Source: Eledone cirrhosa
Lineage: Eukaryota
DNA: 53,163 nt
NCBI GenBank assembly: GCA_964016885.1
Contig: CAXHJY010000323.1
Coordinates: forward strand, 1-53,163
Direction of reading: 5' to 3'
Numbering within the stretch: the stretch's first letter is position 1; every line of letters begins with the position of its first letter. Made by a program: the position numbers and the translations under genes. The notes beneath the pieces were generated by a model, which saw only the letters and a program-made list of their open reading frames with translations, did no database searches and was not told where the DNA came from. Shown here piece by piece: positions 2,133 through 20,135 of the stretch.

Positions 2133-2410
2133 AAGTAAAAGTTGTATTTAATTTGTTGGAAGTCCGACAAACATAAAATACAAAGTTTGTTTTATAAATA
2201 GTGACATAACCATGAAAATCATACCTTTTCGGTTGGAAATTCACTGGATAGTGAAAGTATGGTTTTCATGGGTATGTCTCTATTTATAAAACAAACTTTG
2301 TATTTTATCTGATGAAAGCGCACCAATGTTGTCTTGGTTGCCCTTGAAATATATATAATAAAATAAATATGGTTTTATAAATATAGTTTCTATTTATTTA
2401 ATATCATTGT
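2133..2410 (+). mobile_element. Fold-back PLE terminal-repeat-like element (family A) between TA arrays
   Basis: Inverted repeat ~2173-2228 versus ~2253-2308, followed by an HHR; homologous to 18320-18420 and 19652-20135. Confidence 0.7.
2301..2364 (+). ncRNA. Type I hammerhead ribozyme (family A)
   Basis: tattttat-CTGATGA-aag..gcaccaa/ttggttgc..ctt-GAAA-tatata-TA-ataaaata: stem I, both core boxes, stem II, palindromic stem III. Confidence 0.8.
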
Positions 2411-2658
2411 ATATATATATATATGTATATATATATGTATATATATATATATATGTATATATATATGTATATATATATATATATATATATATATATATAC
2501 AGACATATATATATATATATACAGACATATATATATATACAGACACATATATATATATATATATATATGACAGACACATATATATTACTCTACTGCTTTA
2601 TTACATGTCCCAGCCGAGAGTCTGCGGCCATGCTGGGACACCGCCATATAAATAAATA

Positions 2659-2930
2659 TATTGTTATATTTAGGGATGGTCATGATGCCAACATTGCCAA
2701 TAGAATGAAACACTCGTACCATATAATTTTCACTTCATCTTTATTGTTCATTATTTATTTGTTTGTCAAAGTTCTTTTGTCTCACATTCTGTGACCTCCT
2801 CAATGATTATCTGTTTGGTGCTTCCTGGTCTAAAACTTCTACTTCATCTTGTCATTGTTTGTTTTGTGGTAGGTTTCTGTGTTTCGTGGCTGTGTATGCG
2901 TTTGCTCCTGCGTCTGTGCGTGTGTGCGTG
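2659..2930 (-). mobile_element. PLE terminal repeat fragment (family B) with degenerate HHR (~2766-2808)
   Basis: Close match to 43541-43700; minus strand reads tca-TTGAGGA-ggtcacagaatgtgagac-AAAA-gaac-tt-tgac. Confidence 0.6.
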
Positions 2931-4088
2931 CGCGTGTGTTTGTGTGTGTGTGTGTGTATGTGTGTGTGTGTGTGTGAATGTGTGTATTTGTGTTTATATC
3001 TATAGCTGTTTTGCTGTTTGTGTCTGTATATAAGTGTGTGTGTGTGTGTGTGTTTGTGTGTGTGTGTGTGTATGTGTGAATGTGTGTATTTGTGTTTATA
3101 TCTATAGCTGTTTTGCTGTTTGTGTCTGTATATAAGTGTGTGTGTGTGTGTGTGTGTGTGTGTGTGTGTGTGTGTGTGTGTTTGTGTGTGTGTGTTTGTG
3201 TGTGTGTATGTGTGAATGTGTGTATTTGTGTTTATATCTATAGCTGTTTTGCTGTGTGTGTGTGTGTGGGTGTGTGTGTGTGTGTGTTTGTGTGTGTGTG
3301 TGTGTGTGTGATTGTGTGTGTGTGTGTGTGTGTGTGTGCAGGATATCAGAAGATAAAAGGCCAAGGAGAAGAATGCTCAACCTATTCAAGAGAGCTTATT
3401 TAACAGATATCTACCTAGTTGATGTTGTTTATATTCCAATGAAAGGCTTGTGTCTGTTAGAAACCGACTCTCTAGTGGGAAAAATGTATAACATTATAAA
3501 CCAGAACATATATATATATACATACACACATATATATAGATGTATATACATACATATATATATATATACATATATATATATACATATATATATATATATA
3601 TATATATATATATATATATATACACGTATATATATATATATATACACACACACACACATATACGTATATATATATATATATATATATACGTATATATATA
3701 TATACATATATATATATATATACACACACACATATACATATATATATATATATATACATATATATATATATACACACACACATATACATATATATATATA
3801 TATATACATATATATATATATACACACACACATACACATATATATATATATATACATATATATATATATACACACACACATATACATATATATATATATA
3901 TATACATATATATATATATACACACACACATATACATATATATATATATATACACACACACACACATATACATATATATATATATATATATACACACACA
4001 CATATACATATATATATATATATATATATACACACACACATATACATATATATATATATACACATATATACATATATATATATATATA
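2931..4088. repeat. (TG)n with 3 copies of a ~40-bp spacer, then (TA/CA)n array
   Basis: Direct inspection; spacer gaatgtgtgtatttgtgtttatatctatagctgttttgctg recurs 3 times. Confidence 0.9.
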
Positions 4089-4234
4089 GTGTGTGTGTAT
4101 TATGTGTCCAGTTGGTATTCCTGTAAGAGATATATTTGTTTCATTTCCACCGGAAGTGATGAAATTGCCATTATTACACCTCACTCTGCTATAGGATTAC
4201 TGTGGGGCGTGAGTCGGAAATAAGGGTTGCATAT

Positions 4235-4710
4235 AGAGGGGGGGGCAGAGGGGAAGGCAGAAGAAGAAGGAAGGAGAGAGAGGGAATGATGGAGAGGGAG
4301 AGGAAGAGAGAAGGATGGGGAGGGGAGAGAGAGGATAGTGAGGGAATGAGAGTGGGAGAGAGAAGGAGAGAGAGTGAGAGAGGGGGAATGAGGGTGAGTG
4401 AGGAGAGCGAGATAGTGAGAGAGTGAGAGGGAGTGAGAGAGAAAGCTTGGGTGAGAGGAGAAAGTGAAGGGCAAGGACAGATGGTGTGAGAGAGGAAAGG
4501 AAATGAGTGAGAATGGGGAGAGGGGGGGGAGAGAGTGATTGAAGGAGAGAGTGGGGGGAGAGAAGAAAAGAGGAGTGTAGATAGATAGATAGATAGATAG
4601 ATAGGAAGGTAGATAGATAGATAGGAAGGTAGATAAATAGATAGGAAGGTAGATAGATAGATAGGAAGGTAGATAGATAGATAGGAAGGTAGATAAATAG
4701 ATAGGTAGAT
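4235..4710. repeat. Polypurine GA-rich tract and (GATA)n/GGAAGG microsatellite
   Basis: Direct inspection. Confidence 0.9.
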
Positions 4711-4754
4711 ATGTGTATGTGTGTGTATATATATATATATATATACATACATGC

Positions 4755-18323: not shown

Positions 18324-18383
18324 TATTTTATCTGATGAAAGCACACTAAAATTTAGTGCCCTTGAAATACGTATAATGAAATA
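18324..18383 (+). ncRNA. Type I hammerhead ribozyme (family A)
   Basis: tattttat-CTGATGA-aagca-cactaaa/tttagtg-ccctt-GAAA-tacgta-TA-atgaaata. Confidence 0.8.
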
Positions 18384-18447
18384 AATATGGTATTATAAAG
18401 ATATTTTCTATTTATTAATATTGTTAATATATATACATATATACACA

Positions 18448-18620
18448 CTGATACATCGAAACCGGTTATATTTGATATATTTCACATACATTATAAAACT
18501 CCTTCTTTTTTTAAAAATTGTTCCTCTCATTTTTTCAATAATGTTACTTTGACGGATCAAAGAAGAAAAATAGAAAAACAGATTCTTTAAATATATTTTT
18601 CGGGCTACTTCCAATTCCAC
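18448..18620 (+). mobile_element. Diverged family E terminal repeat with HHR 3' half (GAAA-ccgg-TT)
   Basis: Homologous to 51005-51202. Confidence 0.55.
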
Positions 18621-18959
18621 TTTCTCTCTCTCTCTCTCTCTCTCTCTCTCTCTCATATATATATATATATAATATATACATACATTAAAAACACCAGAAT
18701 GTGTGTGTGTGTGTGTTTGTATATGTATGGTGTGTTCGTGTGTTTGTTTTTGTGTGTTTGTGTATGTATGGTGTGTTCGTGTGTTTGTTTGTGTGTGCGT
18801 GTGTGTGTGTTTGTGTATGTATGGTGTGTTCGTGTGTGTGTGTGTAAAGTTTAACTAGATCACAGTTAAACAGTGATCTAGTTAATGATAGAGGGTTGAT
18901 TGGTTGGCAGACAAGCAAAGACACTGTAGGGAGGCAGAATAGTTGGAGAGGCGGGGGGG

Positions 18960-19405
18960 GGCTCTTTAGGAAGTTGTATGTAGTGGTGGGGGAGAGGGGG
19001 TGGCTGTAGATGGTGTTGAAGGGGGCTGTATGTAGGTGGTGAGGACGGGGGTGTAGGTAGGTGGTGAGGACGGGGGTGTAGGTAGTTGGTGAGGGTGATG
19101 GGGTGTAGGTAGGTGGTGAAGACGGGGGGTAGGTAGGTGGTGATTGGGGGGGTGATTAAGGGGGCTGTAGGTAGGTCGTGAGGACGGGGCGTGTAGGTAG
19201 GTGGTGAGGACGGGGTGTAGGTAAGTGGTGAGGGCGATGGAGTGTAGGTAGGTGGTGATGAAGAGGGGGGTCACAGGCGGTGATGAGGAAGGGGATAGAA
19301 ATATAGGTAAGGGTGGGTGGTGAATGGGGACTGTAGGTAGGTGGTGAGGGGGAGCGTGTAGGTAGGGGTGGTTGGGGGAGGGTGTAGGTAGGTGGTGAGG
19401 GGGAA
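18960..19405. repeat. G-rich degenerate minisatellite (ggtgtaggtaggtggtgaggacgg)
   Basis: Direct inspection. Confidence 0.85.
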
Positions 19406-19651
19406 GAAGAAAAAGAAGGAAATAAATAATGAACTGAAAAAGGGGCCATCTTTGTAGAAGGGGGTGAGGTGTATATTGATGTGTGTGTATGTGTGTGTGT
19501 GTAGGTGTGTGTGTGTAGGTATGTGTGTGTATGTGTGTGTGTGCAGTTGCATCTGTGTGTATATCTCGCTGTGTATTTGTGTTTATGTGTGTAAATGTTT
19601 GTGTGTGTATATATATATATATATATATATATATATATATAAGCAGAAGGG

Positions 19652-20135
19652 ATATTTAATTTGTTGGTAATTCAACAAATATAAATGTTTATAACTGATT
19701 TAGAGCACTCCACAGTTTTCTGGAGTAAATATTTGATGATATTAAATAAATGGAAACTATATTTATAAAACCATATTTATTCTATTATATCGCCGAGGTT
19801 AACTTTGCCTATCATCCTTACGGGGGTCGATAAAATAAAGTACCAGTAATACACTGGTGAATTGCTGGCCTTGTGCCAGAAGTAGAAACAGTTATATATA
19901 TTTCAATGGTACCAAAAAATTTTGGTACGCTTTCATCAGATAAAATACAAAGTGTGTTTTATAAATGTTGACATAGCCAAGGAAACACCTTATCAGTTGA
20001 ATTTTCCTTGGATAATTCAACTGATAAGGTGTTTCCTTGGCTATGTCAACATTTATAAAACACACTTTGTATTTTATCTGATGAAAGCGTACCAAAGTTT
20101 TTTGGTACCCTTGAAATATATATAATAGAATAAAT
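19652..20135. mobile_element. Palindromic family A element with back-to-back HHRs, interrupted by a SINE S1 fragment (19791-19891, +)
   Basis: Near-perfect inverted repeat centred at 20008/20009; HHRs at 19778-19947 (-, split) and 20070-20132 (+). Confidence 0.8.
20070..20132 (+). ncRNA. Type I hammerhead ribozyme (family A)
   Basis: tattttat-CTGATGA-aagc-gtaccaaa/tttggtac-cctt-GAAA-tatata-TA-atagaata. Confidence 0.82.

Follow-up and report, generated by a model that had tools for sequence, protein, structure and literature searches.

Hammerhead ribozyme motifs with self-complementary helix III inserts in probable Penelope-like element remnants of Eledone cirrhosa

Four loci in a 53,163-nt stretch of Eledone cirrhosa DNA (contig CAXHJY010000323.1 of assembly GCA_964016885.1; here called the window) carry type-I hammerhead ribozyme motifs with an intact core. 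Most likely, these loci (A, B, C and D) are dimer-type hammerheads derived from the pseudo-long terminal repeats (pLTRs) of two related families of Penelope-like elements (PLEs), with A, B and C belonging to one family and D to the other, and represent 5'-truncated insertions in (TA)n. Selection on the RNA structure, including the helix III that would form between copies, is supported, but a selected role of the helix III palindromes as family-specific dimerization codes, as proposed in the initial annotation of this DNA, is not. The window itself consists of microsatellite-rich repeat DNA with a GC content of 15-49% (2-kb bins) and decayed retroelement frames.

The motif is laid out in A-D as stem I 5' strand, CTGATGA, stem II, GAAA, a hexamer, TA and stem I 3' strand (Table 1). 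All 13 core positions are intact, which bears out the four copies with fixed core that had been annotated. Two further twins, C' and D', are present on the minus strand, and the order of the core elements that defines a type-I hammerhead (CUGANGA, GAAA, UH) is correct in all six copies. Stem I has 8 bp and stem II 9-15 pairs in A-D and D', with the open ends at stem I; stem I of C' is broken by an insertion. The hexamer sits between GAAA and TA in each of A-D, and this helix III insert is self-complementary in six of six window copies. Only three different hexamers occur, and since A and C form one subfamily (∼80% identical over 196 nt), the palindrome changes twice and not three times. Stem II had been annotated as differing between the copies but still pairing. 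This is confirmed by covariation at six of its pairs, but A carries a bulged U, and in B, which also has a 2x2 internal loop in stem II and a G·U in stem I, the distal stem has 6 bp with a 3-nt loop instead of 7 bp.

At the fourth position of stem II, the copies have a C·C or C·U mismatch (2319/2342, 18342/18360, 20088/20109 and 48945/48974). It is kept in both families and in one read-derived variant, and 2319/2342 is without a variant among the rows listed from the sequencing data described below. Possibly, this pyrimidine mismatch is a site of tertiary contact.

The bare core pattern was found 13 times in the window compared to 0.64 expected, and none of 100 shuffled sequences reached 13; six of these matches are A, B, C, D, C' and D'. 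The full descriptor gave four matches (A, C, D and D') compared to one in 10 shuffles together, and missed B because of its internal loop. A covariance model was built from A, B, C, D and D', and these five were recovered by construction with >80 bits. Six window copies reached E<1e-6, and every other match had an E of at least 0.07. C', which was outside the training set, scored 44.5 bits, and the next match in the window 21 bits. As a control, a loose pattern gave 60 matches, 2 of them in viral and 58 in metagenome contigs, with a best model score of 27 bits. Two of these 60 loci had a palindromic hexamer and none combined a palindrome with stems I and II; these matches are chance only.

Covariation was counted for 22 pairs in five related rows, of which D and D' are near-duplicates, on a structure derived from the same sequences. 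Among the resulting 110 cells 97% pair, compared to 36-57% in slid controls. Eight of the 22 pairs change on both sides, the six in stem II and two in helix III, and stem I varies by G·U only, at three pairs. As a sequence comparison of five rows, this covariation is regarded as supportive only. The probability that a two-substitution neighbor of a palindrome is palindromic by chance is 0.07-0.11, and that of two such steps 0.004-0.011. For selection on helix III, the window alone provides modest evidence.

Four of 11 listed sequencing runs were compared with copy A (2245-2410) at 80% likeness. They yielded 6425 contigs in X1 and 27129 reads in X9 (both organism A), 46 contigs in X5 (organism B) and four partial contigs, <90% alike, in X7 (organism D). 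The hammerhead family is high-copy and also present in a second organism (X5). The following refers to the 40 of 71 variant rows that were listed. Of these, 15 lie in the upstream flank, 22 in the ribozyme and three downstream, and none falls on the 13 core positions or on the 5' strand of stem I (6425 contigs, 27129 reads). The ribozyme rows are found in loop II (10), at the bulge of A (3) and at paired positions (9); among the latter, seven keep a G·U pair alone and two (2320 and 2340) have listed partners (2341 and 2321). Together with the pairing in the window copies, these G·U-compatible or partnered variants support the annotated selection on RNA structure, including intermolecular pairing. 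A 30-letter consensus of loose ends (13646 reads, probably from one locus) contained another stem II which, by eye, forms 13 pairs and has the same C·C mismatch.

The sole hexamer row was 2353 A>G. Its share of the depth was 27% in X1, 54% in X5 and 45% in X7, while the two directions of X9 gave 69% and 36%; counted per run, the shares span 27-64%. It is one of only three single changes of TATATA that keep full self-pairing, and the resulting TATGTA self-pairs via G·U. These shares suggest that TATGTA is common in the family (X1, X9 and X5), and the change could stem from one founder event. The Watson-Crick partner, 2352 T>C, was absent among the rows listed, the weakest of which was at ∼7%. 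CpG decay of TACGTA should give TACATA equally often, which would be visible at 2352; therefore the data favor pairing by RNA rules on the hammerhead strand. Indeed, the read data contradict a strict DNA palindrome: the annotated rule that the hexamer is always palindromic holds for the six window copies and not for the family in the sequencing data.

In a monomer, closing of helix III is predicted to cost 2.9 kcal/mol compared to the open form. In the modeled double hammerhead, the two palindromes are joined by 8 pairs and each stem I is made up of strands from both copies, with homodimer gains over the monomers of 5.2 (A), 8.1 (B), 5.4 (C) and 11.5 kcal/mol (D), which are nearest-neighbor estimates without tertiary contacts. 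In an active source element, the 6-nt insert would thus be too short for a stable helix III within one ribozyme. Instead of folding alone, two tandem copies of the same transcript would exchange strands, sharing an 8-bp helix III with each stem I formed between copies, and cleavage would occur after the A of the GAAA-N6-UA junction. For PLE hammerheads, the partner is thought to be the neighboring tandem copy on the same transcript, i.e. in cis (PMC6765202). Selection in the source element would keep the core and the pairing, while the letters would drift via G·U from TATATA over TATGTA to TACGTA and then TGCGCA. For A-D both the dimer mechanism and the cleavage are predictions. The inserted copies are probably inert, because twins on opposite strands cannot both be carried in sense by one transcript, and because the read-through RNA is predicted to form one long hairpin (>90% of bases paired for C and D). 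As the genomic copies are unlikely to act, selection would have acted in the source elements.

Layout and context point to PLEs as the origin of the copies. Inverted 5'-truncated copies, a one-sided tail or extension and microsatellite targets are traits of PLEs (PMC8557442), and 5' truncation with an inverted copy and (TA)n flanks were found at A, C and D, with a one-sided extension at C'. Hammerhead pairs on opposite strands have been described in Schistosoma PLEs, where they are 100-700 bp apart, and also in a bracovirus-borne PLE (PMC4209133). Other PLE-like remnants followed by hammerhead-like motifs are present elsewhere in the window and are counted for a PLE origin as atlas leads only. 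It is unlikely that the copies are instead monomers of a non-autonomous retrozyme without long terminal repeats (non-LTR retrozyme), i.e. a short type-I hammerhead repeat that spreads by circular RNA. The copies are short, non-coding, high-copy, AT-rich and without a linked reading frame, and the animal non-LTR retrozymes are likewise short non-coding high-copy repeats with type-I hammerheads, some of them with a weak helix III (PMC7229834; bioRxiv 10.64898/2026.07.22.740005). According to a 2026 preprint (bioRxiv 10.64898/2026.07.22.740005), animal retrozymes stem from PLE pLTRs and include many monomers, so that the two readings overlap. However, those retrozymes are head-to-tail tandems of 150-450 bp, whereas no head-to-tail tandem of the unit was seen in the window among the matches listed by masked self-BLAST; instead, the copies form fold-backs in head-to-head orientation, and their 5' junctions differ. 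In the reads and contigs, loose ends run into TA-rich sequence near 2400, and joints going back, as tandem units would give, are rare (two, with 6 reads each, at 30 and 52 nt).

The PLE-like remnants elsewhere in the window include a broken frame at 4775-6300 (+) that resembles a PLE reverse transcriptase followed by a C-terminal endonuclease region (atlas leads HTH_animal and RVT_1). A long hammerhead-like motif follows at 6191, and the end of the remnant matches 38978-39068 (-). A frame of 78 aa at 43758-43991 (+) has as its nearest named atlas cluster one with GIY-YIG in 15% of its members, a lead only, and a hammerhead-like motif is located downstream of it on the same strand at +44275. 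This motif and those at -10875, -39688, -43680 and -2806 include four related ones; three of the five have the non-palindromic GAAC after GAAA, or a decayed form of it, and two have T at position 3. A classic minimal hammerhead family with an extra A, a G-C stem II and a 2-nt CG palindrome is represented at -34995 (core intact), +11640 (GAAA changed) and +28923 (truncated). The frame at 2-673 (-) contains an AP (apurinic/apyrimidinic) endonuclease domain (Pfam Exo_endo_phos, E 1.3e-05) and is probably a long interspersed element that leaves the window.

It is improbable that the palindromes were selected as family-specific dimerization codes, by which RNAs of the same family would meet in trans and other families would be avoided. 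Such a code would fit with the three different palindromes in one window and with the modeled helix III duplexes, which are -3.2 (TATATA), -6.5 (TACGTA) and -10.5 kcal/mol (TGCGCA) when matched, whereas the three mixed combinations give +0.8, -1.8 and +5.7 kcal/mol. Modeled heterodimers differ from the monomers by -1.0 (A x B), -3.1 (B x D) and +4.2 kcal/mol (A x D), and distant families probably do not cross-dimerize, but this penalty follows from divergence without selection for specificity. TATGTA bridges TATATA and TACGTA: it is modeled to pair at all 8 positions with both (-3.2 and -4.7 kcal/mol, compared to -2.2 with itself), and its predicted dimers with A, B and C (-4.4 to -5.7 kcal/mol) beat its homodimer (-2.6 kcal/mol). 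Stem I, which provides 16 of the 24 inter-copy pairs, is interchangeable and forms 8/8 between any two of A-D. Moreover, with the published partner in cis self-complementarity suffices, and Aedes families already show CGCG versus GGCC (PMC4209133), a pattern of ordinary divergence. The series is explained by drift through G·U steps without selected specificity. A helix III palindrome that evolves as a recognition code, with co-active families selected to diverge and TATGTA caught as an intermediate bridging two codes, is just as doubtful. If true, a family series with its intermediate in one genome would allow a direct test of how an RNA helix between molecules evolves by compensatory changes. 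A literature search on heterodimers of PLE hammerheads or on the specificity of their partners gave no pertinent result, which is no proof that the subject is missing from the literature; a paper on dimer cleavage (RNA Biol 14:1499) may bear on it. The neutral frequency of non-palindromes among all copies, against which the annotation had proposed to judge the code, is an ill-posed measure because dead copies decay neutrally, and it applies to subfamily-defining changes only.

A by-product at the DNA level without any ribozyme, i.e. an AT-rich fold-back with palindromes made by CpG decay, (TA)n slippage and arm homogenization, is highly improbable. In its favor, TATATA matches the local background, the change from TACGTA to TATATA corresponds to decay of the CpG on each strand, Rfam gives no match and the fold-back arms explain the strong hairpins. 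Against it, the exact core is kept with correct spacing while the flanks diverge or are unalignable, and the variants would pair as G·U in RNA of the hammerhead strand but as A·C in RNA of the opposite one. The expected TACATA is missing among the listed rows, as described above.

Several observations weigh against the interpretation of A-D as PLE-derived hammerheads under selection for RNA pairing. Stem II starts with A-U instead of G10.1-C11.1, which may slow cleavage. The one-sided extension (∼100 nt) exceeds the 30-40-bp PLE tail. No frame for a reverse transcriptase or GIY-YIG endonuclease is attached to A-D within the window, and a Pfam search of 14 frames found neither in 13, the exception being the AP endonuclease frame. 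Rfam hammerhead families did not match C or D up to E 10, and the Rfam scan of the window at the gathering score gave no hammerhead but microsatellite-driven noise of microRNAs and small nucleolar RNAs and four tRNA-like matches; this suggests a limit of the models rather than a defining failure. Folding z-scores of the monomers are weak (predicted at -0.4 to -1.2 for A, B and D, and -2.6 for C). The variant rows come without haplotypes and by an unstated ranking rule, and favor conserved stretches. The downstream flank, with its three listed rows, is also conserved, so that conservation alone is not specific, and the plus-direction reads of X9 are seemingly dominated by one locus. A single palindrome step has the chance probability of ∼0.07-0.11 given above, and the step from TACGTA to TATATA could be double CpG decay.

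C and D are complete head-to-head fold-backs with arms that are 96.6% and ∼90% complementary, respectively (masked self-BLAST), A is a partial fold-back, and (TA)n flanks all three. The left arm of A ends in the same far-end sequence as C', which suggests that A was once two-armed like C. This arm presumably lost its hammerhead and the following sequence by deletion at a short TTTAT repeat. Upstream of the single-armed B, a short peptide (18207-18260) resembles what we take to be the C-terminus of a PLE endonuclease. C' is interrupted 1 nt 3' of its predicted scissile bond by a truncated copy of the commonest repeat of the window, which resembles a short interspersed element (SINE); the target duplication around this insertion measures 6 nt (19785-19790/19892-19897). 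That the end of C' was made by the ribozyme cutting at its cleavage site was considered and rejected, since the rest of the copy continues beyond the insertion with the target duplication. The region downstream of C' is 96% identical to that of A over 55 nt. The repeat that interrupts C' is ∼190 bp long, and its many copies are 88-97% identical and in some cases partly tandem-duplicated.

Table 1. Positions of the hammerhead copies and the surrounding elements in the window
Feature	Position	Strand	Details
Hammerhead copy A	2301..2365	+	stem I 2301-2308 with 2358-2365; core 2309-2315; stem II 2316-2345; GAAA 2346-2349; hexamer TATATA 2350-2355; predicted cleavage after A2357
Hammerhead copy B	18324..18383	+	core from 18332; hexamer TACGTA 18368-18373; predicted cleavage after A18375
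Hammerhead copy C	20070..20132	+	core from 20078; hexamer TATATA 20117-20122; predicted cleavage after A20124
Hammerhead copy C' (5' part)	19892..19947	-	core 19939-19933; hexamer 19900-19895; A17 at 19893
C' 3' part	19641..19790	-	displaced stem I 3' strand 19778-19785; extension ∼100 nt ending in (TA)n
Hammerhead copy D	48927..48997	+	core from 48935; long stem II with 15 pairs plus a single C·U mismatch; hexamer TGCGCA 48982-48987; predicted cleavage after A48989
Hammerhead copy D'	48727..48797	-	twin of D, differs in loop II only; core from 48789
Fold-back A	2173..2308		arms ∼81% complementary; left arm ends at stem I, without hammerhead
Far end of A left arm	2133..2172	-	homologous to far end of C'; runs into (TA)n
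Element B	18205..18430	+	single-armed; ∼79% identical to A over 18295-18442
SINE-like insertion	19791..19891		truncated copy (101 nt)
Fold-back C	19892..20125		head-to-head; predicted read-through hairpin -177 kcal/mol buries the ribozyme
Fold-back D	48690..49034		head-to-head; predicted hairpin -239 kcal/mol; both flanks TA-rich
∼190-bp repeat copies	7645-7836, 14378-14568, 23168-23359, 30690-31065, 39140-39560, 42889-43082

Another dispersed repeat was observed at 20162-20340, 8315-8495, 29507-29636, 38490-38636 and 51238-51714, and its copies often end in short fold-backs adjoining (TA)n. Two perfect 62-bp palindromes (50151-50212 and 50552-50613) are built from the end of a repeat also found at 49474-49506 and related to 18451-18614. 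The window also contains 14 tandem copies of a 71-bp tRNA-like unit (24756-25755; 98% identical), which is related to 11889-11997; four of these units reach the Rfam tRNA cut-off, and ARAGORN finds none. A 42-bp satellite is present in 42 copies with 98% matches at 15653-17420.

The two repeat families would extend a known ribozyme class and offer a natural series for the dimer model, in which three strict palindromes are joined by a frequent G·U form that is explicable only as RNA pairing. Such a series is a useful test set for cis versus trans cleavage of PLE hammerheads, one of which was not required for in vitro insertion (PMC11167929). The series would gain in importance if selection of the palindromes for family specificity were shown, but the present data argue against it.

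Compared to the double hammerhead of avocado sunblotch viroid and newt satellite 2 (Forster et al., 1988; via PMC6155905 and PMC6466107), in which two tandem copies share an extended helix III as in the dimer model proposed here, the copies in the window are dispersed truncated genomic copies, whereas those are tandem multimers with canonical sizes of helices I and II. With the short-stem-III hammerheads of PLEs (Lunse, Weinberg and Breaker; via PMC6765202 and PMC6466107) they share the short palindromic stem III loop, the PLE association and cleavage as a dimer, the last two as predicted here. PLE hammerheads have a small palindromic helix III, are active as dimers and show abundant compensatory changes within their families (Cervera and de la Pena, 2014; PMC4209133). 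The palindromic insert between A15.1 and U16.1, unstable in the monomer, and the compensatory changes are shared by the copies of the window. Fig. S3 of that paper contains 6-nt palindromes in Drosophila willistoni and 8-nt palindromes in Aedes and Saccoglossus, and an A-U at the base of helix II in D. willistoni and Latimeria 2. In contrast to stems I of usually 4-5 bp there, stem I has 8 bp here, and all copies have A10.1-U11.1 where the consensus has G10.1-C11.1 (>80%, not universal). The consensus has an extra base after A9, whereas here none is clearly unpaired, although the first A could be read so. Further differences are the pyrimidine-pyrimidine mismatch that both families retain at the fourth stem II position, the frequent G·U with its non-strict palindrome, and that no open reading frame is linked to the copies in the window. 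Overall, the differences from the published PLE hammerheads are minor.

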